64,000 nt of DNA from an uncultured Eubacteriales bacterium (GCA_910586545.1 CAJUIQ010000001.1:156157-220156), one strand, 5' to 3'. Counted from the stretch's first letter, positions 11,097-45,639 are shown. The notes: generated by a model from the sequence alone, not told the origin. Numbers and translations: made by a program.

Positions 11097-12521
11097 TTAT
11101 TCAGAAACGGTTGCCGCTTCCGGCAGTATGGCCGGCTGTTCCAGCCCTGCATCCTGTTCCTTTTTTGCATGGTATTGGCGCATCATCCGCTTTTTCACAA
11201 TGATAAAGCATACAAACTGGGCCGCAAAGCTGATGAACCAGGAAACCGGATAGGAGATATAAAGGGAGGTAAGCGTATGAAAAGAAGGGAAGATAAACCA
11301 TACCCAAAGGACTCTGGTGCCGCAGATTCCGATAACCGATATAAGGGTCGGTACCAGGGAAGCGCCCATGCCCCGGAGCACGCCGGTCATCACATCCGTG
11401 CCGGCACATAGACAGTATGTAGTACATATTACCAGGAGCCGCTGTATGCCAAAGGCGACAGCCTCCTCAGAGGCGGGAATATATATGTGCAGCAATTCCC
11501 GTCTTGCCAGCAGGAATACGCCGCCCATGATAATACTTACAGCCATCGCCATGGTAAGGGTCGTTCTCATAATTTTGCCGGCGCGCTGATATTTGCCGGC
11601 GCCGATGTTCTGTCCGGTAAAGGAAACGGCGGATTGGTGGAACGCGTTTACGGAAAGATACATAAATCCTTCCAGATTGGAAGCGGCGGAATTTCCGTTC
11701 ATTGCCACAGCTCCAAAGGAGTTGATGGAAGACTGAAGCACTACGTTGGAAATCGAGAATACAGTGCCCTGCAGTCCGGCGGGAAGTCCAATTTTTATAA
11801 TTTTCAGCAGCTTATCGGGATAAATTTTCAGTTTTTTGAGATTGAGCTTATACCATTCGTCGCACCGCATCATATGGATTACAATTAGTGTGGCGGAGGT
11901 AATCTGGGAGACGACGGTGGCAATGGCCACGCCGGCTACATCCAGACGAAACAGAATTACCAGTATCAGGTTCAAAATGATGTTGATGATACCAGACACA
12001 ATGAGATAATACAGGGGCCGCTTTGTATCGCCTGCGCTGCGCATAATAGAAGCGCCGAAGTTGAATATCATCATTGCGGGGATCCCGCAGAAATAGATTT
12101 GCATGTAACGCGACGCCTGCTCAATTACGTCGTCGGGGGTACCCATAAGACGCAGCGCGGGAGCGGATATGACAATGCCAAGAATACCTACAAAGATACC
12201 GGTGACGGCGGCAGCAAGGATAGAGGTATGCACTACCTGCTGCACACCTTTCCGGTCGCCCGCGCCGTAACAGTGTGCGGCGATTACGCTGGAGCCTACG
12301 GAGAGGCCCATAAATAAATTGACGATCAGGGTGATCAGGGATCCGGTGGAGCCAACGGCGGCCAGCGCGTTTTCGCTGCCGTATCGGCCTACGACGACGG
12401 TATCCGCCGCGTTGAATAAAAGCTGGAGCGTGCCGGAGAGCATAATCGGGATGGAAAAGAGGATCAGCCCCTTCACAATAGACCCGTTTACCATATCGAT
12501 GTTTTTGCTGTGTTTTGCCAT
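11097..12521 (-). CDS. MATE family efflux transporter
   Basis: 12 TM helices. The N-terminus ...GSIVKGLILFSIPIMLSGTLQLLFNAADTVVVGR is the typical MATE/NorM signature. Confidence 0.9.
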   Translation of the reverse strand: MAKHSKNIDMVNGSIVKGLILFSIPIMLSGTLQLLFNAADTVVVGRYGSENALAAVGSTGSLITLIVNLFMGLSVGSSVIAAHCYGAGDRKGVQQVVHTSILAAAVTGIFVGILGIVISAPALRLMGTPDDVIEQASRYMQIYFCGIPAMMIFNFGASIMRSAGDTKRPLYYLIVSGIINIILNLILVILFRLDVAGVAIATVVSQITSATLIVIHMMRCDEWYKLNLKKLKIYPDKLLKIIKIGLPAGLQGTVFSISNVVLQSSINSFGAVAMNGNSAASNLEGFMYLSVNAFHQSAVSFTGQNIGAGKYQRAGKIMRTTLTMAMAVSIIMGGVFLLARRELLHIYIPASEEAVAFGIQRLLVICTTYCLCAGTDVMTGVLRGMGASLVPTLISVIGICGTRVLWVWFIFPSFHTLTSLYISYPVSWFISFAAQFVCFIIVKKRMMRQYHAKKEQDAGLEQPAILPEAATVSE

Positions 12522-12676
12522 AAGAAAATCTCCATACAGGATAAAAGTTATACGAAAAACCGTAACAAAGCTCCGCTGATTTGATCCGCGGAGCCTTAGA
12601 TGATACTTATATTATAGTATATGATAAAACAAAGTCAAGGTGCTTGGCACAATTTGAAAATATATGGTTTGTTACA

Positions 12677-21119: not shown

Positions 21120-21196
21120 TGGTCGGAGTGACTGGATTCGAACCAGCGGCCTCTTGGTCCCGAACCAAGCGCTCTACCGAACTGAGCCACACCCCG
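21120..21196 (-). tRNA. tRNA-Pro (anticodon CGG)
   Basis: Hand-folded cloverleaf: acceptor CGGGGTG/CACTCCG, D arm GCTC..GAGC, anticodon stem CTTGG/CCAAG with loop TTCGGGA, T arm GCTGG-TTCGAAT-CCAGT, discriminator A, encoded CCA. 77 nt. Confidence 0.9.
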
Positions 21197-36832: not shown

Positions 36833-37396
36833 ATGTTTACAAAAAAGATCAGTGAGGCGGAAAAAGAAGCCGCAAGAAAAAAGGTGCGGGAAGTGTTTGG
36901 AGAGTGCCAGGAAATTACGGATAAGCCGCTTCGCCCATTTATGCTTAAGTGGCTTTCTGCCTTTGCCCCGGATATGGAATACTACGATGCAAAGTCTTTT
37001 TGCCTGCCTCGGCGGATGTATCAAAATAATCTATGGCATGCATTCAGCTTTCAGAAAACAGATTGTTATATGGGTGAGATGGCGAATGAGGCTTTTGCAG
37101 GGGGATTTTCCGATGCGTGTTATATTTTTTTGAATCGTGAACAGCTTTTGTTTCAAATTCCGGATGGGGGAATCCTTACACCGGAGCTGGTGTCCGCCTG
37201 TGACAATATTATTGTAACAGATAAGAACTTTTCCTACACGTATGTGTATACGGGGAAGGAAAACACCGGGCCCTATTTTAAAACGGCAGAAGGCTTGGCC
37301 GACGCCTTTGTGGAGGCAGGAGAAGACGAGCCGGAACCGGAGGAAGAGGGCTTTTCCGTACCTGATATGGATAGCGAGGATCCTTTTGTCTTATGA
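36833..37396 (+). CDS. hypothetical cytoplasmic protein (DUF4275-like), acidic C-terminus
   Basis: The NNLWHAFSF...GEMANEAF pattern recalls DUF4275. ATG 6 nt after GGAGG. Confidence 0.5.
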   Translation: MFTKKISEAEKEAARKKVREVFGECQEITDKPLRPFMLKWLSAFAPDMEYYDAKSFCLPRRMYQNNLWHAFSFQKTDCYMGEMANEAFAGGFSDACYIFLNREQLLFQIPDGGILTPELVSACDNIIVTDKNFSYTYVYTGKENTGPYFKTAEGLADAFVEAGEDEPEPEEEGFSVPDMDSEDPFVL

Positions 37397-37440
37397 CAAA
37401 GGGATCTTTTTATATTGCGTTGGAGCCGGCGTAATATAAG

Positions 37441-37471
37441 ACACCTCCCAGGGTAAAACCCTGGGAGGTGT
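37441..37471. other. 13-bp-stem hairpin between convergent genes (possible terminator, no U-tract)
   Basis: ACACCTCCCAGGG-TAAAA-CCCTGGGAGGTGT. Confidence 0.4.
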
Positions 37472-37477
37472 AAAAAA

Positions 37478-39058
37478 TTAGTTTCCGAGAGATTTTGTGG
37501 CTTTTACGGTTACATCTTCACCGTAGCAGCTGAACATAGCGTCTACTTTTTTAGCGTCCGGCTTTGGAGAAAGCAGGCTGATTATTGGCACCAACAGCAA
37601 TCCGCCTATCATGGCAAACACACCGGAGTATAGAGAATTTTTGAAAATCAGCCCCAGAATGCCTCCTTCTACGGTAAACACACCCATGGAAATGAGCATC
37701 TGCACAGTCATCAAACAGGAAGAAAACAAAAAGCTTACGGCTACAGCCGCTTTGGTGGTCCGTTTCCAGTACAGTCCATATAGGAAGGGAGCTAAGAAGG
37801 CACCTGCAAGCGCGCCCCAGGAAACCCCCATCATTTGTGCAATCATAGAGAAGTTGAAGGTATCTTTTAAAACTGCCAGTACTGCAGAAACAATAATGAA
37901 AAAGAGAATAAACAGACGCAGGATAAAGAGCTGCGTTTTTTCTTTTGTCTCCTTTTTGCGCATAGGCAAGATTACATCCAGAGTGAGTGTAGAACTGGAA
38001 GTGAGAACCAGACTGGACAGAGTAGACATGGACGCGGACAATACCAGCACCATGACGACAGCAATAATCACGCCGGGCATTTTCGAAAGCATAGTGGGAA
38101 TAATGCTGTCTGTCATCAGCTTGCCGGACGCGTCGTACAGGGCAGGGCTGTCGTATAGACGGCCGAATCCGCCGAGGAAGTAGCAGCCGCCCGACACAAT
38201 AATAGCAAATATCGTAGAGATAATCGTCCCTTTTTTTATGGCGTCCTCATTTTTAATGGAGTAGAATTTGCCAACCATTTGCGGAAGTCCCCATGTGCCA
38301 AGGGATGTGAGCAATACGACGATCAGCAGATAAAAAGGCTGCGGTCCTACAAAGGAGCTGTAAGCGCCCTCCAGAGCACCGGCCTCCGGCGCCTGCACAT
38401 GAGACAGGGAAATGATGGACTGACTCAGACCGCCGTTATCTGCCAGAACTGCCGCTATAACTGCTACAATTCCGCCCAGCATGATGATGCCCTGGATAAA
38501 ATCGTTAATGGCGGTGGCCATATATCCGCCAAAAATTACGTACAGGCCGGTAAGCCCTGCCATAACAGCAATGACTACCCAGTAGGGAATGTCAAAGGCA
38601 ATATGGAACAGGCTGGAAAGACCGTTGTACAGGGAGGCGGTGTATGGAATCAAAAAGATAAAAACAATAAAAGAAGCAGCAATTTTGAGCTTGCCGGAGT
38701 CAAACCGCTTCCCGAAAAAGTCCGGCATGGTTTTGGTGGAAAGATGCTGGGTCATAATCCGGGTTCTCCGTCCCAGAATCACCCATGCCAGCAGAGAACC
38801 GATGAAGGCGTTTCCAAGGCCGATCCAGGTAGACGCCATACCGAAGTTCCAGCCAAACTGACCTGCGTATCCTACAAATACTACCGCCGAAAAATAAGAG
38901 GTGCCAAACGCAAAGGCGGACAGCCAGGGTCCAACAGAACGTCCGCCCAGTACAAATCCGTTGACGTTTGTTGCGTGCCGGCGGCAGTACAGGCCGATTC
39001 CGGTCATCACAGCAAAGAAGATCAGCAGCAGCGCTGCGGTTAATACTTTTGTAAACAT
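37478..39058 (-). CDS. sodium:solute symporter (SSS) family transporter
   Basis: About 13 TM helices, N-terminal ..GFVLGGRSVGPWLSAFAFGTSYFSAVVFVGYAG, typical of the SSS family. Confidence 0.85.
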   Translation of the reverse strand: MFTKVLTAALLLIFFAVMTGIGLYCRRHATNVNGFVLGGRSVGPWLSAFAFGTSYFSAVVFVGYAGQFGWNFGMASTWIGLGNAFIGSLLAWVILGRRTRIMTQHLSTKTMPDFFGKRFDSGKLKIAASFIVFIFLIPYTASLYNGLSSLFHIAFDIPYWVVIAVMAGLTGLYVIFGGYMATAINDFIQGIIMLGGIVAVIAAVLADNGGLSQSIISLSHVQAPEAGALEGAYSSFVGPQPFYLLIVVLLTSLGTWGLPQMVGKFYSIKNEDAIKKGTIISTIFAIIVSGGCYFLGGFGRLYDSPALYDASGKLMTDSIIPTMLSKMPGVIIAVVMVLVLSASMSTLSSLVLTSSSTLTLDVILPMRKKETKEKTQLFILRLFILFFIIVSAVLAVLKDTFNFSMIAQMMGVSWGALAGAFLAPFLYGLYWKRTTKAAVAVSFLFSSCLMTVQMLISMGVFTVEGGILGLIFKNSLYSGVFAMIGGLLLVPIISLLSPKPDAKKVDAMFSCYGEDVTVKATKSLGN

Positions 39059-39082
39059 ATGCCCTCCGAAGAATATTATAAA

Positions 39083-40717
39083 TTATTTTGTAGTCTGGGC
39101 CTCTACCAAACTGCCGCCGCAGTAGATGCCGCGCAACTTGGGCTTTTCAATTTTTCCCGTAGGGTTTCTGGGAACATTGGCAAAAATGATTTTTCGTGGC
39201 CGCTTATACCGGGGAAGCTCCTGGCAAAATACGTCGATTTCTTCCTCTGTGGCGGTACATCCCGGTTTTAGTTCAATCACTGCGGCTGCGATTTCTCCCA
39301 GACGGTCGTCCGGCAGGCCGATTACCGCCGCATCTTTGATTTTTTCATTACTACGCAAAAAATCCTCGATCTGCACCGGATAAATATTTTCGCCTCCGGT
39401 GATAATCACATCTTTTTTGCGGTCTACTAGATAAATAAACCCGTCCTCATCGCACCGTGCCATATCCCCGGTCCAAAGCCAGCCGTCCCGCAGGATTTCT
39501 TTAGTAGCTGTGGGATTTTTATAATAGCACTGCATCACGCCTGGTCCACGGACGCACAGCTCGCCTACTTCTCCATCGGGAACTTGTCCGCCTGTGCTAT
39601 CCAAAATTTTTGCTTCCCATAAATATCCGGGAATGCCGATGGCACCCACCTTGCTGATATTTTCTACTCCAAGATGTACGCAGCCGGGACCAATGGATTC
39701 CGATAGGCCGTAGTTGGTATCGTATTGGTGATGCGGGAAAACCTGCATCCAGCGTTTGATCAGGCTGGGGGGAACAGGCTGTGCTCCGATATGCATCAGC
39801 CGCCACTGGGACAGCCGATATTTTTCCAGTCGAAGGTCACCCCGGTCAATGGCGTCCAAAATATCCTGTGCCCACGGCACCAGCAGCCACACGATGGTGG
39901 CCTTTTCCTGACTTACCGTCTGTAGGATCCATTCTGGGCTGACGCCTCGGAGCAGTACGGATCTGCTGCCAGAAAGAAGGCTGCCAAACCAGTGCATTTT
40001 GGCGCCGGTATGGTAAAGTGGGGGGATACACAGAAACACATCGTCTCGAGTTTGGCCGTGATGGGCCTGCTCGGTTCTTGCAGAATTGATAAGAGCCTTA
40101 TGTATATGGAGAATTGCTTTGGGAAAACCTGTGGTGCCGGAGGAAAAGTAGATTGCGGCTTCATCCTCCTCCTTCAGTTCAATGGCCGGCGCTGTCTTGG
40201 AACAGTATGTAAGGTATTGACAGAAATCTTCCGCACCAGAGGGGATGTCTTTCCCCACAAAGAAAACGGTGGAAAGCCCCTGCACATTTTCCTGAATTTG
40301 CGCCACTCTGTCTGTAAATTCCGGTCCATAGATCAGGGTAGTAGAATCGGACAGTTCCAGACAATACTGAATTTCCTCTGCGGTGTAGCGATAATTCATA
40401 GGAACGGCAAGCGCACCGGTCTTTAAGATGCCAAAATAAATGGGGAGCCATTCCAGACTGTTCATCAGAAGAATGGCTACCTTGTCTCCACGTTTGATCC
40501 CTCTGGTCAGGAGCAAATTTGCGGCTTGATTGGCTTTTTGTTCAAATTGCCGCCAGGTAATGGCGCGGCGGTATTTTTCCCCTTCCGCCGTTTCAATCAG
40601 ATTGTATTCCCGCCAGGTTGTAGTTCGGCTGGGATGATTTTCCGGATTAATTTCCACAAGAGCTTCTTCTTCTGGATACAGCCTTGCGTTCCGGTCTAGT
40701 AAATCTACGATGGTCAT
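39083..40717 (-). CDS. AMP-forming acyl-CoA synthetase (ANL superfamily)
   Basis: YFSSGTTGFPKAI P-loop, WLWTGD, GENIYP, and C-terminal PRNPTGKI. Start at the ATG after GGAGGAAGG. Confidence 0.88.
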   Translation of the reverse strand: MTIVDLLDRNARLYPEEEALVEINPENHPSRTTTWREYNLIETAEGEKYRRAITWRQFEQKANQAANLLLTRGIKRGDKVAILLMNSLEWLPIYFGILKTGALAVPMNYRYTAEEIQYCLELSDSTTLIYGPEFTDRVAQIQENVQGLSTVFFVGKDIPSGAEDFCQYLTYCSKTAPAIELKEEDEAAIYFSSGTTGFPKAILHIHKALINSARTEQAHHGQTRDDVFLCIPPLYHTGAKMHWFGSLLSGSRSVLLRGVSPEWILQTVSQEKATIVWLLVPWAQDILDAIDRGDLRLEKYRLSQWRLMHIGAQPVPPSLIKRWMQVFPHHQYDTNYGLSESIGPGCVHLGVENISKVGAIGIPGYLWEAKILDSTGGQVPDGEVGELCVRGPGVMQCYYKNPTATKEILRDGWLWTGDMARCDEDGFIYLVDRKKDVIITGGENIYPVQIEDFLRSNEKIKDAAVIGLPDDRLGEIAAAVIELKPGCTATEEEIDVFCQELPRYKRPRKIIFANVPRNPTGKIEKPKLRGIYCGGSLVEAQTTK

Positions 40718-40749
40718 ATGGATTCCTTCCTCCATTTTATAAGACATAT

Positions 40750-41045
40750 AAAAAGTCCTCATGAAGCAACAGCTTCATGAGGACGAATCAACCGCGGTAC
40801 CACCTCAATTGCCCCAGAGGGGCCTCTCACAGGCACGACACCGCGACCAATGTGCAGTGTATAGCCTTGGCGCAACTTTAACGGACGCCAACCCGTCGCT
40901 GCCTACTAGAGCAAACATACTTTTTCAGAGCGAAACTCACGAGATGTAATTCGCCTTTGCCATCCTACCGTCTTTCACCATCCGACGGCTCTCTGAAAGG
41001 GATACAGCTAGGGTACTCGTTCCCGGTCACTGTCTTTTTATATAC
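40750..41045 (-). promoter_or_regulatory. T-box riboswitch leader
   Basis: Minus strand carries AGAGAG (40989-40994), distal loop UGGUGAAAG, F-box CCGUUA (40879-40884), T-box GGUGGUACCGCG (40793-40804), then terminator hairpin 40755-40784 + U5. Confidence 0.85.
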
Positions 41046-41051
41046 GAATGT

Positions 41052-41080
41052 ATCTTATCACAAAGAAAAGATTTTGTCAA
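41052..41080 (-). promoter_or_regulatory. sigma-A promoter of the T-box leader
   Basis: Minus strand reads TTGACA-17 nt-TAAGAT. Confidence 0.6.
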
Positions 41081-41106
41081 GAGTAGACGAAAATAAATTT
41101 ATCCGC

Positions 41107-42207
41107 TTATTTACGAGTTTGGTATGCCTGCATCAGCTCTTCAATCTTTGTATGGGGATCCAGCAGTGTGGAGACAGAATTACCTGTATGCACAGAGAAA
41201 ATATAAAAGGAAATATATTTCAGCAAATCCACTTCTCTGTACCAGGATGCGCTGGTGACCGCTGGGCTGCGGTAGGACGCATTGGTGACAAAGACAGCTT
41301 CCAAAAGTCCGTTTTTAAAGGCAGCGTCAAATCTTTCTGTTCCGCCGGTAAAAAATCCGAAGGTGACGCCTACGAACACCCGCTTCGCGCCAAATTCTTT
41401 GATTCGTTTCACGGAATCCAACATAGAATCCCCTGAAGCAATGATATCGTCTATAATCAGCACGTCCTTGCCCGCCACATCCGGGCCAATATATTTGTGC
41501 AGCTCTACCGGATTCTTTCCATCCTGCACTTTTTTTACATTTCTTCTCTTATAGAACATGCCGAGGTCTATGCCAAGTTCGTTTGCATAGGCAAAATTTC
41601 GATTGATTCCGCCAAAATCCGGACTGACCACCACCATATGCTCTTCATCAAAGCGTAAGTCTTTAAAACTACCGCACAGGGCTTTGATGGTTTGATATGT
41701 AGGCATCAGGTTGTCAAATCCCATAAAAGGAGTGGCGTTCTGCACGCGGCTATCGTGGAGATCAAAGGACATCACGTTGGAAACGCCGATGGATTCCAGA
41801 TGCTGCAGAGCCACGGCACAGTCCAGAGATTCTCTGGCCACGCGTCTGTCCTGACGGGCGCTGTATAAAAAGGGAGCGATTACGTTTACCCGGTCCGCTT
41901 TACCGCCGATAGCGGAAATGGCGCGCACCAGATTTTGAAAGTGGTCGTCCGGGGACATACTATTCTCCCGATCAAAGATGGTGTATGTCTGGCTGTAGTT
42001 GCCTACGTCCACCAGAATGTACACATCTTTTCCACGGACAGAATTTTGCAGTACCGCTTTTGCGTCTCCTGTGGCGAATCGGGGTAGTTCTACCGGCAGA
42101 ATCTCACAGGGGACATCCTTGCAGACTGTTTGCAGATAGGCGAGAATTCCCGTGGCCATCCATTCCATTCCCGGAAGGGGCAGCAGCGCAATTGCAGTTT
42201 GATCCAT
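41107..42207 (-). CDS. prs: ribose-phosphate pyrophosphokinase family protein
   Basis: DLHD, VVVSPDFGG and PRPP-binding loop VLIIDDIIASGDS. Confidence 0.8.
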   Translation of the reverse strand: MDQTAIALLPLPGMEWMATGILAYLQTVCKDVPCEILPVELPRFATGDAKAVLQNSVRGKDVYILVDVGNYSQTYTIFDRENSMSPDDHFQNLVRAISAIGGKADRVNVIAPFLYSARQDRRVARESLDCAVALQHLESIGVSNVMSFDLHDSRVQNATPFMGFDNLMPTYQTIKALCGSFKDLRFDEEHMVVVSPDFGGINRNFAYANELGIDLGMFYKRRNVKKVQDGKNPVELHKYIGPDVAGKDVLIIDDIIASGDSMLDSVKRIKEFGAKRVFVGVTFGFFTGGTERFDAAFKNGLLEAVFVTNASYRSPAVTSASWYREVDLLKYISFYIFSVHTGNSVSTLLDPHTKIEELMQAYQTRK

Positions 42208-42245
42208 TTTTTATGGCCGATCCTTTCTTTGCATAATAAGTCTCT

Positions 42246-43187
42246 TTATTCCTGTTCCAATAGTTCCACAATTCGGATGAAATTTGCGGGTGGATCACAA
42301 CGGAAGGTCACCTGTCGGCCTGTGGACGGGTGGACAAAGGAAAGTTCCCCAGCATGCAGACATTGTCCATGAAACAGTGTGGGATGTTTTTTTTCAAAAG
42401 GAGCTTGTCCGCCTCCATATACGGGATCCCCTAAAACGGGATGCCCCATATACGCCATATGTACCCGAATTTGATGGGTACGTCCTGTTTCCAGCCGCAT
42501 CCTGCACAGGGTATGCCCTGTAAGGGGGCGCACAGGTTCATAGTGGGTAACGGCACGTCGGCCCCCGTCTTGCAGTACTGCCATTTTTTTGCGGTCCGTC
42601 CGGTGTCTGCCGATGGGAGCATTTACCGTTCCTCCCTCCAAAATTTTACCCCGGAGAACAGCGCTGTAGCTTCGATACATGGAGTGGTCTTCCAACTGCG
42701 CGGCAAGAGAAAGATGCGCAGCATTGTTTTTGGCCACTGCGATCAGTCCGCTGGTATCCCGGTCAATCCGGTGGACGATGCCGGGGCGGATGATTCCATT
42801 TATATCAGACAGGCTGTCTCCCGTATGATATAAAAGGGCGGAGACAAGGGTTCCGTCCGTATGGCCTGGCGCCGGATGGACCACCATTCCCTGCGGCTTG
42901 TTTACTACTACAATGTCGTTGTCTTCGTATACAATGTCCAGGGGGATGTTTTCTGGTCGCACCTCACATTCCCGTACCGGAGGCAGGGAGACGGCAAACG
43001 AGTCTCCTGCTTCTACCCGCAGGCTTTTTGAGACGGTTTCTCCGGCTTTTGTTACTGCTCCTGCGTCCAGCAGATGCTGGACGGCGCTGCGGGACATGGA
43101 CAGCGCTGCGGACAAAACCACGTCCACCCGTTTACCGGCCGTTTCTTCTGTCGCAGTTACGGTTTGTTCTTCCTGGTACAGGTTCAT
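42246..43187 (-). CDS. rluD: RluA-family 23S rRNA pseudouridine synthase (RluD-like)
   Basis: N-terminal S4 domain, catalytic HRIDRDTSGL, and HQIRVH. Confidence 0.88.
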   Translation of the reverse strand: MNLYQEEQTVTATEETAGKRVDVVLSAALSMSRSAVQHLLDAGAVTKAGETVSKSLRVEAGDSFAVSLPPVRECEVRPENIPLDIVYEDNDIVVVNKPQGMVVHPAPGHTDGTLVSALLYHTGDSLSDINGIIRPGIVHRIDRDTSGLIAVAKNNAAHLSLAAQLEDHSMYRSYSAVLRGKILEGGTVNAPIGRHRTDRKKMAVLQDGGRRAVTHYEPVRPLTGHTLCRMRLETGRTHQIRVHMAYMGHPVLGDPVYGGGQAPFEKKHPTLFHGQCLHAGELSFVHPSTGRQVTFRCDPPANFIRIVELLEQE

Positions 43188-43696
43188 GCGTCTGCCTCAC
43201 CGTCAGAAGCCGCCGCGTCTTTTTTGCCGCTGTTTTGTTTTTTTCTGTTTTGTACTTCGGAAAGGATCAAATACAGGATCAGCAGCCCGCAGCCGACACA
43301 CACAAAAGCGTCCGCTACGTTGAATATGTAAGGAAAGTGGATCAGTTCTACCTCCACAAAGTCAATAACAGCGCCCCGCAAAATTCGGTCAATCATATTG
43401 CCAATGCCGCCTCCCAAAATCATGCCGAGGGACAGACACACCAGGATGCTCTTCGGTTTTTCACGCCAGAGGTAAAAGAGAATTGCGACAATGGCGATTA
43501 CAGATAAGATCATAAAGATCCAGCGATGCTCAGCTAAAATACCAAAGGCGGCTCCTTTATTTTCAATATAGGTAAGGCGAAAAACGCCTCTGATTCCTTC
43601 CACAGAGGCGCCTTCACTAATATTTTGCACGACCAGAAGCTTTGTTATCTGATCCAGAAATATAGCGGCAGCCGCTACTACAAGACACAAAATCAT
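43184..43696 (-). CDS. lspA: lipoprotein signal peptidase II
   Basis: ..DQITK.., NKGAAFG and FNVAD motifs, 4 TM helices. Confidence 0.88.
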   Translation of the reverse strand: MILCLVVAAAAIFLDQITKLLVVQNISEGASVEGIRGVFRLTYIENKGAAFGILAEHRWIFMILSVIAIVAILFYLWREKPKSILVCLSLGMILGGGIGNMIDRILRGAVIDFVEVELIHFPYIFNVADAFVCVGCGLLILYLILSEVQNRKKQNSGKKDAAASDGEADA

Positions 43697-43719
43697 ATTT
43701 TGTATATGCCTTTCTGGGA

Positions 43720-44550
43720 TTATTTATCGTTATTTTCTGTAAATTCTCGCAGATATTGATAATAGTCCGTTTCTTTCGCGGTAGTAGAAACGGTTTCCGT
43801 ATCGAAGGAATAAATTTTCTCCGTTTCCTCGTCTCCTCCGGTGAAGAAGTCATCTTCCTCATCTTCTTCCACAAACTCCTGGGGTTGGGATTCGGTTTCT
43901 ATTTCTTCTTTTACAGGCGGTGCCTCCTCCTGTACGACAGGCGCATCTGCCTCCGGCATCTTTTCTTCTTCTTCTTCTTCTTTCTTTGGAAAGATACTGT
44001 TTGGGGGATATTCTGTAAACACAGGCACCTCTGCCTCCGGCTCTCCAGGTTCTTCAAAGGTGTTCACTGCGTCGGCAAGACTACCATAATCCGGTTCAGC
44101 TACAGGAGACTGGGCGGCGTTTGCAATGGCTTCGATCATTTCAATATGACCGCTGTACAGATTGAACAGCTGGTCTTTAAAATCGGCGGCTTGAGTACGC
44201 ATCACGTCTATTACCTGCATACGGTTTGCCACTTCATCATCCATTTGGGACACGATTTTACCGCATTCTGCCCGCGCTTCGTCCAGCAGTGTGGCCGCCC
44301 GTTCTTTCGCATTCAGAATCATAGCCGCCGCCGCTTTTTTTGAGTCCGCAATATTTTGCCGCAATTCGTCTTCTGCTTTGGACAAGCTTTCAATCAGATC
44401 TTCCGCCAAACGGATGCGTTTTTCCAGTTCCATGATCCGGCCCTGGAGAAACTGATTTTTTGCCCCGAGATTTTCAATATATACATCTACCGCTTCCGGA
44501 TCGTACCCTTTTTTCACTAGGGGAAATCTTTGTGTGGAATCTGTATTCAT
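43720..44550 (-). CDS. divIVA: DivIVA domain protein
   Basis: FPLVKKGYDPEAVDVYI N-terminal DivIVA motif, coiled coil, and an E-rich tail. Confidence 0.85.
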   Translation of the reverse strand: MNTDSTQRFPLVKKGYDPEAVDVYIENLGAKNQFLQGRIMELEKRIRLAEDLIESLSKAEDELRQNIADSKKAAAAMILNAKERAATLLDEARAECGKIVSQMDDEVANRMQVIDVMRTQAADFKDQLFNLYSGHIEMIEAIANAAQSPVAEPDYGSLADAVNTFEEPGEPEAEVPVFTEYPPNSIFPKKEEEEEEKMPEADAPVVQEEAPPVKEEIETESQPQEFVEEDEEDDFFTGGDEETEKIYSFDTETVSTTAKETDYYQYLREFTENNDK

Positions 44551-44580
44551 AACGCCGCGTCCTTTCTGCCTGTCATTGTA

Positions 44581-45540
44581 TCATTGATACTTTTGTGCTG
44601 TAAGATGCAGCCTGCCCCGTGTGGTAGGCCGCCCGATTTCATCGATCCTGAATTTTCCGTATCCACGTACGGATATAATATCTCCCGGCTCCATGCGCCG
44701 ATCTGTTTCTTCTATAAGGTCGTAATTGATTTCTACCATTCCGCGCTGAATCAGATTAGCCGCGTCTTCCCGGGACACATTGCATAGGATACGTATGACA
44801 CCGTCCGCTCGGGGGGATGCTACTGTTCCGTGAATGGATGTATATTGCTGCCGGGGTACAAAGCCAGCCGGCAAGCGGCAGGGGACGGCGTGCACCGCGT
44901 CCCGGCCCGCTTTTTTTAGCTCACTGATAAGATAGGAAGCTCCCCTGGTCTGACAGAACACCACAGCGTGAAAGTCGTCCCATATTACAATGTCGCCCAG
45001 AATTTCCCGTTTTATGCCAAGAGACATCAGGGAACCCAGCCAGTCGCGGTGGGAGAGGGCGCGAAATCCGCTCCCTTTCAGGAGCAAGGGATGCACAAAT
45101 GCGGACAGCAGGCCCTCCTCCTGGATTTCCTCCAGTTTTTCCGGCAGGAATTCATATGGATCCCCGCAGCAGTGTTCTATCGATTCTTCCATACCGGCTA
45201 CGGTTAAGAGATGCAGAAAATACGATTCTCTGTCCTGTGTAAAAAGCTGCGCTGGAGAGGCAGGCGGGGCGTCTTCTGCAAAGGACAAAATCCATGTTGG
45301 CAGGTAAACCGCCATACGTCGGGACGCTCCAAGGCAGCCGCCCCAGAAAAAGAGCTGATCGGCACGTTTTTCCCGCAGTGCGCTGTCAAATAAAATCCGC
45401 TGTTGCCGGGGGGATAAAAAAGATGATGCGACCGCAGAATGTTCCGCCCGTGCGGAAAGTTCCGCACCTCTGGCAATCAGCAGCCGCTCTTCTTCAGTAA
45501 TCCGGACGCCGCCGGGTGAGGGAGAATTTTCAGTCATCAT
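44581..45540 (-). CDS. ylmH: YlmH-family S4-domain RNA-binding protein
   Basis: C-terminal S4 domain (..ANLIQRGMVEINYDLI..) and conserved position between sepF and divIVA. Confidence 0.75.
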   Translation of the reverse strand: MMTENSPSPGGVRITEEERLLIARGAELSARAEHSAVASSFLSPRQQRILFDSALREKRADQLFFWGGCLGASRRMAVYLPTWILSFAEDAPPASPAQLFTQDRESYFLHLLTVAGMEESIEHCCGDPYEFLPEKLEEIQEEGLLSAFVHPLLLKGSGFRALSHRDWLGSLMSLGIKREILGDIVIWDDFHAVVFCQTRGASYLISELKKAGRDAVHAVPCRLPAGFVPRQQYTSIHGTVASPRADGVIRILCNVSREDAANLIQRGMVEINYDLIEETDRRMEPGDIISVRGYGKFRIDEIGRPTTRGRLHLTAQKYQ

Positions 45541-45639
45541 AGGGCCGCCTTGCCGTTGTATTTTTCCCTTACAGAACAAGCGCCGTCTCCCGTGCGGAAA
45601 AGTCCAGCGCGAGAGGCGGCAGCCGCTTCTGTATCTAGA

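Follow-up and report, generated by a model that had tools for sequence, protein, structure and literature searches.

A tyrosine-specific T-box leader upstream of a CoA ligase–symporter operon with a proposed role in aryl-acid salvage

We analyzed a 64,000-nucleotide stretch of DNA from an uncultured Eubacteriales bacterium, hereafter called "the window", which carries a two-gene operon on its minus strand. The first gene (39083..40717) encodes a 544-residue acyl/aryl-CoA ligase of the ANL superfamily, and the second (37478..39058), which begins 24 nt past the ligase gene, encodes a 526-residue sodium:solute symporter of the SSF family, both assigned with Pfam. The ligase is likely to start at the ATG at 40717, behind the ribosome-binding site GGAGGAAGG (40733..40725). 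The same frame also contains ATGs farther upstream, at 40762 (559 residues) and 40747 (554 residues), and some database entries begin at the second of these. These codons lie within or just past the terminator described below and lack a ribosome-binding site; a start at 40762 is improbable, because it would fall inside the terminator. On the other side of the operon, a hairpin search revealed a probable operon-end hairpin with a 14-bp stem and a poor U tail (37471..37441, minus strand), and the genes beyond 37441 lie on the opposite strand. The two-gene operon therefore ends there. Upstream, on the same strand, positions 41107-45579 are occupied by the end of a cell-division cluster (YlmH-like, DivIVA, lspA, and rluD) and, behind it, by a PRPP synthetase gene. 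The operon has its own promoter, 27 nt past the stop codon of the PRPP synthetase gene.

The minus-strand leader of this operon is a genuine, ordinary class I transcriptional T-box. The search with the Rfam model RF00230 matched positions 41039..40776 over the full model (1-219) with 119.1 bits (E 9.3e-26), above the gathering score of 93, and thereby confirmed a reading made from the sequence alone, in which a T-box controls this ligase and this symporter rather than an aminoacyl-tRNA synthetase. In the Rfam scan, the leader is the sole cis-regulatory RNA of the window, and the only other Rfam match is a tRNA-Pro(CGG) gene (21120-21196, minus strand). The promoter, TTGACA-17-TAAGAT, is of the sigma-70 type with a TG-extended −10 element (41052..41080, 10 of 12 matches); it is the top-ranking promoter-like site across 37300..41300 and precedes the Rfam match by 13 nt. 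Stem I (40927..41039), which scores 93.7 bits against our custom Stem-I covariance model, includes the GUGA of the GA/K-turn motif (41030..41027), the AG bulge AGAGA (40994..40990), and the distal helix and loop (40989..40967), with GGAUGGUGAAA as the loop sequence (40983..40973). The F-box CCGUUA (40879..40884) aligns to the conserved CGUUA of the model, and the T-box sequence GGUGGUACCGCG (40804..40793) lies inside the antiterminator. Promoter, AG bulge, distal loop, F-box, T-box sequence, and the terminator with its U5 tail are thus all found where the sequence-only reading had placed them. Every element is intact, including the complete Stem I, the UGGN bulge of the T-box sequence, and a terminator that excludes the antiterminator.

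The one structural element that required correction is the lower helix of Stem I, which had been drawn as a K-turn-flanked ACGAG/CUCGU pairing. The covariance model instead pairs CGGGA (41025..41021) with UCUCG (40944..40940), the A and the U forming the additional pair, and leaves ACGAGUA unpaired as the 5′ strand of the specifier loop, with the AGUA S-turn element inside it. A 97% identical locus (L001) separates the two pairings: the CGGGA/UCUCG helix becomes CGGGA/UCCUG and stays fully paired through compensating changes, while ACGAG/CUCGU turns into AUCAG/CCUGU and loses two of its five pairs. Over 30 leaders, the three modelled helices of Stem I are paired in 92.8% of the cells, with compensatory changes in 13 of 13 pairs. 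None of 500 shuffles reached the covariation score of this set, and the slid controls were all less than 45% paired. When Stem I was folded thermodynamically on its own, the canonical structure did not emerge (z −0.77), and RNAalifold on a plain MAFFT alignment returned the distal helix only. The evidence for the Stem I structure is therefore drawn from the covariance models.

At the 3′ end of the leader, the terminator/antiterminator alternative, which the sequence-only reading had made a test of its claim, can indeed form. The intrinsic terminator (40750..40784) consists of a perfect 13-bp stem (40784..40755) with a 4-nt loop and a UUUUU tail. Its stability is −24.4 kcal/mol (z −8.97), which none of 200 shuffles matched. 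The antiterminator (40779..40806), placed by the Rfam alignment, consists of GAGG/CCUC, the 7-nt bulge UGGUACC, and GCGG/UCGU, and its canonical fold reaches −5.9 kcal/mol. The hexanucleotide GUCCUC (40784..40779) is common to both structures, and therefore the two folds are mutually exclusive. Given the large difference in stability, termination is the default, and antitermination needs stabilization from outside, as in all T-boxes. Within the antiterminator bulge, UGGU (40802..40799) is complementary to the ACCA end of a tRNA. The discriminator A that this bulge implies fits tRNA-Tyr; as tRNA-Leu and tRNA-Ile also carry A73, the bulge does not discriminate among the candidate tRNAs.

Which codon does the specifier loop present? 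The sequence-only reading had left UUA (Leu), AUU (Ile), and UAC (Tyr) open on the 3′ side of the loop, GAAUUACAU (40952..40944). In the Rfam alignment, UAC (40948..40946) occupies the specifier columns and A40945 the purine column that follows. An extra a and an extra u are treated as insertions; the lower helix is longer by one pair, and the 3′ side of the loop is 8 nt long, with the layout GAA-U-UAC-A (40952..40945). We compared this layout with the leaders of 80 species-level loci encoding orthologues of the ligase. Full-length Rfam T-boxes precede the orthologous ligase operon in 22 of these 80 loci, and the custom Stem-I model added three further leaders. The T-box thus occurs at 25 of the 80 loci, and roughly two thirds of them lack it. 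Together with the window, and with two leaders contributed by one locus (L042), the set comprises 27 leaders. The specifier is UAC in 22 of them and UUC (Phe), at the same position, in the other five, while none of the 26 leaders from other loci has a Leu, Ile, or Val specifier. The orthologous leaders read GAA-UAC-N or GAA-UUC-N, in most cases with a 7-nt 3′ side. Leaders ahead of aminoacyl-tRNA synthetase genes in the same loci served as controls: the valS leader reads GAA-GUA-G, the pheS leader reads GAA-UUU-C, and the leader of asnS-asnA in L023 reads GAA-U-AAC-A, which is exactly the 8-nt layout of the window. If the asnS leader were read straight after GAA, then its specifier would be the stop codon UAA, which supports the offset register in the window. 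From the Rfam register, the 26 orthologous leaders, and these controls, the specifier is UAC (Tyr), and the UUA and AUU readings are excluded.

The ligases under Phe-specific leaders form a single clade. No residue column was found to separate the Tyr-regulated from the Phe-regulated ligases; therefore, the ligase is not visibly tuned to the hydroxyl group. As judged from these sequences, the pattern fits one switch from UAC to UUC on an unchanged, probably broad, aryl-acetate-specific enzyme.

The ligase itself contains the AMP-binding domain PF00501 (256.8 bits) and the C-terminal domain PF13193 (45.8 bits), which place it in the ANL superfamily. It remains below every NCBIfam cut-off, with PRK06187 (NF004837) as the best match (411.8 versus 476). 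Of the 107 NCBIfam families that it matches, the 25 with the highest scores do not include PaaK (TIGR02155). Its nearest solved structures include the fatty-acyl ligases FadD13 and FadD5 and feruloyl, malonyl, and 4-coumarate ligases, all with similar scores; accordingly, the sequence does not give the substrate. The symporter matches PF00474 with 176.5 bits (cut-off 22.8) and is therefore an SSF member, while its score of 174.2 against the TIGR00813 superfamily model is slightly under the cut-off of 184. It stays under the equivalog cut-offs of PutP (184.5 versus 515.5), PanF (147.7 versus 328), and ActP (33-48 versus 750-1099), and among these NCBIfam models it is nearest to PutP and PanF, not to the acetate/phenylacetate permease branch. 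On the basis of the gene context described below, we propose the ligase as a candidate aryl-acetate-CoA ligase and the symporter as a candidate aryl-acetate importer.

The ligase family is widespread and well conserved. The 120 best-scoring database entries listed are all 74-97% identical to the ligase of the window, and the family is about 70-80% conserved over hundreds of gut and rumen Clostridia. A relative is present in at least 596 species-representative genomes, among at least 600 pattern matches, and the carriers are nearly all gut or rumen Clostridia, such as Oscillospiraceae, Acutalibacteraceae, and Faecousia. Close orthologues (68-75% identity; L038, L048, and P0103) also occur in metagenome-assembled genomes labelled Thermoguttaceae, Chloroflexota, and Sumerlaeota, which suggests either mis-binning or a recent acquisition from Clostridia.

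We then annotated the gene neighborhoods of the 80 orthologous loci by ORF clustering followed by tblastn. Four ORF clusters from high-GC loci (7, 10, 11, and 13) proved to be antisense shadow ORFs and were replaced by the tblastn-based annotation. The recurrent gene order is the ligase gene, sometimes an SSS gene, iorA, iorB, a gene for a PaaK-like ligase, a gene for an ACT-pair protein, and sometimes an aminotransferase gene. Downstream of the ligase gene, iorA is present in 34 of the 80 loci, and iorB was detected in 30 of those 34; among the 55 loci with 2.5 kb or more of downstream sequence, iorA is present in 30. The representative IorA scores 709 bits against TIGR03336 (cut-off 651), the indolepyruvate:ferredoxin oxidoreductase (IOR), and the representative IorB scores 289 bits against NF005325 (cut-off 230). 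No linkage of a 2-oxoisovalerate-type oxidoreductase (VOR) to the ligase orthologues was seen in the 80 loci. Of the two classes of precursor suggested from the sequence alone, the aryl-acetates therefore agree with the neighborhoods and the branched-chain acids do not. Of the 34 iorA-linked loci, 24 also carry the PaaK-like gene, as do 19 of the 24 where at least 1.5 kb follows iorB; the product of this gene, of about 435 residues, scores 540 against the PaaK model TIGR02155 (cut-off 646). Moreover, five loci have the ligase gene and iorAB without paaK, so this ligase can be the sole CoA ligase adjoining IOR. Symporter orthologues (more than 55% identity) adjoin the ligase gene in about 20 of the 80 loci, and in several loci the symporter gene lies between the ligase gene and iorA, including ligase-iorAB operons that have no T-box.

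The T-box is present in 14 of the 34 IOR-linked loci, and in 13 of these 14 it stands ahead of the entire cluster. At least eight species have it ahead of the ligase gene, whether or not the SSS gene is present, and lack IOR genes within 6 kb. The window belongs to this group: tblastn found no homologues of iorA, iorB, paaK, the ACT gene, or the aminotransferase gene within its 64 kb. One locus (L042:5704-8074) combines a Tyr (UAC) T-box ahead of the ligase gene with a separate Phe (UUC) T-box that lies between the ligase gene and iorA-iorB-paaK-ACT-aminotransferase, which hints at a division of labor between the two ligases. A protein of about 270 residues from the Amidohydro_2 family (PF04909) also recurs beside the ligase (L079:5184-6000, L005, L053, L057, L065, and L070), and in L079 its gene lies between the SSS gene and the ligase gene, inside the T-box operon. 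The Amidohydro_2 family includes reversible aromatic-acid (de)carboxylases.

These observations lead us to favor, as the probable function, an aryl-acid salvage operon under a Tyr-specific, transcription-attenuating T-box, in which the symporter and the ligase would feed an IOR-type reductive carboxylation. A T-box turns its genes on when the cognate tRNA is uncharged, and the products are therefore expected to raise the supply of that amino acid. IOR interconverts aryl-acetyl-CoA, CO2, and reduced ferredoxin with the arylpyruvate. Since an AMP-forming ligase channels an acid into its CoA thioester, and IOR is the only conserved partner of this one, the salvage of aryl-acetates is the simplest reading. 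The T-box provides independent regulatory evidence for the biosynthetic direction of the IOR clusters. The specifier and the gene function agreed in all tested T-box cases (PMC2494555). A narrower proposal is that the FadD-like family is specialized as an aryl-acetate-CoA ligase for 4-hydroxyphenylacetate and phenylacetate, within a starvation-induced, tRNA-sensed SSS-IOR salvage of tyrosine and phenylalanine; in our estimate, this proposal is evenly balanced.

The explanation that competes most seriously accepts the Tyr-specific T-box and departs from salvage thereafter: the symporter might import tyrosine or phenylalanine itself, like the majority of transporters under T-box control, or the ligase might activate another aromatic acid, such as 3-(4-hydroxyphenyl)propionate, 4-hydroxyphenyl-lactate, or 4-coumarate. 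PutP (184 bits) and PanF (148 bits), not ActP, indeed give the symporter its highest scores, amino acid transporters are commonly under T-box control (PMC2494555), and the solved structures closest to the ligase include feruloyl-CoA and 4-coumarate-CoA ligases. In addition, many orthologous clusters already carry a PaaK-like ligase, a type active on aryl-acetates elsewhere (PMC13285125), and the need for a second ligase is unexplained, which counts against the salvage reading. However, the conserved neighbor is IOR, whose acyl-CoA substrates are aryl-acetyl-CoAs, and the dehydratase, acyl-CoA dehydrogenase, or lyase that a route through a propionate or a lactate would need does not recur among the 80 loci. 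Furthermore, the ligase is the only one beside iorAB in the five loci without paaK, and the symporter gene also occurs inside ligase-iorAB operons without a T-box. We regard this explanation as a minority possibility that deserves to be kept in mind.

Two other explanations carry far less weight. The ligase could be an ordinary fatty-acid-CoA ligase, with the T-box either linked to it incidentally or present as a decaying relic; its best NCBIfam and PDB matches indeed carry fatty-acid-CoA ligase names, and most orthologous loci lack the T-box. This is quite unlikely, because the leader is intact and has been kept with compensatory changes over many families, its specifier is held at Tyr or Phe, and the neighboring genes are iorAB, paaK, ACT, and aminotransferase genes, not those of beta-oxidation. 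The remaining explanation takes the specifier as UUA (Leu) or AUU (Ile) and the pathway as the salvage of a branched-chain acid, such as isovalerate or 2-methylbutyrate, through a VOR-type oxidoreductase. It draws on the UUA that stands directly behind GAA in GAAUUACAU, in the register of the 7-nt loops (GAA-UAC-A) of the orthologues, and on the match of the UGGU bulge to A73. We consider it scarcely credible: both the Rfam and the custom models put UAC-A in the specifier columns, the 8-nt asnS-asnA leader makes sense only in the offset register, each of the other orthologous leaders has a Tyr or Phe specifier, and the oxidoreductase linked to the ligase belongs to the IOR equivalog and not to VOR. 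The branched-chain version is thus ruled out by the identity of the oxidoreductase together with the absence of Leu, Ile, and Val specifiers from the leader set.

For the favored aryl-acetate salvage, we propose the following sequence of events. By default, the 13-bp terminator would form, and transcription would halt ahead of the ligase and symporter genes. When uncharged tRNA-Tyr accumulates, its anticodon GUA would pair with the specifier UAC in the loop of Stem I, and its free ACCA end would pair with the UGGU of the T-box bulge. The weak antiterminator would be stabilized by the bound tRNA-Tyr, allowing RNA polymerase to read into the two-gene operon. The SSS symporter may then take up 4-hydroxyphenylacetate, and probably also phenylacetate, and the FadD-like, AMP-forming CoA ligase would convert the imported acid to the aryl-acetyl-CoA. 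An indolepyruvate:ferredoxin-type 2-oxoacid oxidoreductase, presumably encoded elsewhere in the source genome, would reductively carboxylate the 4-hydroxyphenylacetyl-CoA to 4-hydroxyphenylpyruvate, and finally a transaminase would turn the latter into tyrosine.

How does this system compare with those already known? As an RNA, the leader resembles the class I T-boxes (RF00230), such as those of Bacillus subtilis tyrS and glyQS, in its GA/K-turn, the AGUA…GAA specifier loop, the AG bulge, the distal loop, the F-box, the UGGN bulge of the T-box sequence, and the competing terminator and antiterminator; its specifier ends in C, as in most of them. The difference in the loop is confined to its 3′ side, with 8 nt (GAA-U-UAC-A) rather than the 7 nt of most orthologues. 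The genes are what sets the window apart, since they are neither an aminoacyl-tRNA synthetase gene, nor a classical biosynthetic operon, nor a recognized amino acid transporter gene.

The proposed pathway also has precedents. Rumen bacteria reportedly incorporate aryl-acetates, according to Allison and co-workers. In Methanococcus maripaludis, the feeding of aryl acids into aromatic amino acid synthesis via IOR is known genetically, in the account of Porat et al. given in PMC4162585. The same order of steps—aryl-acetate to aryl-acetyl-CoA to arylpyruvate, followed by transamination—is proposed here, and iorAB is linked to the ligase gene in the orthologous loci. Unlike the archaeal route, the genes in the window are under a tRNA-sensing riboswitch, the ligase belongs to another family, iorAB is absent from the window, and the pathway in these Clostridia is a predicted one. 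In Bacteroides, an AMP-forming ligase beside IOR was assayed as an aryl-acetate-CoA ligase in a 2026 study, whose authors suggested on thermodynamic grounds that such ligases favor the biosynthetic direction (PMC13285125). The orthologous loci resemble this iorAB-PaaK cluster in that an AMP-forming ligase adjoins IOR, and the same PaaK-like gene is found in the 24 loci mentioned above. In contrast to the Bacteroides PaaK of about 435 residues, the 544-residue enzyme of the window is, by its sequence, a FadD/4CL-like ANL enzyme, which would be an additional or alternative ligase. Finally, the oxidative tyrosine fermentation of Clostridium scatologenes and C. difficile, which uses the HpdDEFG oxidoreductase, a phosphotransacylase, and a kinase, and whose steps are reported to be reversible (PMC13285125), has 4-hydroxyphenylpyruvate, 4-hydroxyphenylacetyl-CoA, and 4-hydroxyphenylacetate in common with the proposed route. 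That fermentation runs toward the acid and yields ATP, whereas the operon of the window would deploy an ATP-consuming, AMP-forming ligase upon starvation. The ATP-consuming ligase and the induction by starvation imply the opposite direction.

The RNA in itself is ordinary; the novelty lies in the regulon, which is seemingly unreported, and in the testable function that it provides for an uncharacterized ligase family. We found no link of a T-box to indolepyruvate, phenylacetate, or an acyl-CoA synthetase in the literature searched, although a prior mention in older reviews is possible, and CoA ligases, IOR, and phenylacetate are all absent from two surveys of T-box regulons. Gene function can be read reliably from T-box specifiers, and here the specifier assigns an uncharacterized and very widespread ligase–transporter pair to the supply of tyrosine and phenylalanine. 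This suggests that, when the amino acid is short, the bacteria take up aryl-acetic acids and use them to remake tyrosine and phenylalanine. If so, then genes could be named for the reductive carboxylation of aryl-acetates in gut and rumen Firmicutes, a route that has long been known and is genetically unassigned, and the T-box would be the first regulatory evidence for the biosynthetic direction of their IOR clusters. It would also mean that aromatic end-products of fermentation, the precursors of p-cresol and phenylacetylglutamine, are turned back into tyrosine and phenylalanine, and it would reveal which commensals use up 4-hydroxyphenylacetate and phenylacetate, two acids that otherwise give rise to p-cresol and phenylacetylglutamine, both of which act on the host.

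Two of the orthologous loci carry further structured RNAs. In L079, from a gut Clostridia metagenome-assembled genome, a T-box-SSS-ligase-iorAB-paaK-ACT cluster is followed, a few hundred bases past its final ACT gene, by a full-length OLE (ornate large extremophilic) RNA (11974-12609, 487 bits). In L025 (1800-2250), a tmRNA gene is directly followed by the Gut-1 sRNA (RF01706, 67.6 bits), about 2 kb upstream of a T-box-SSS-ligase operon.
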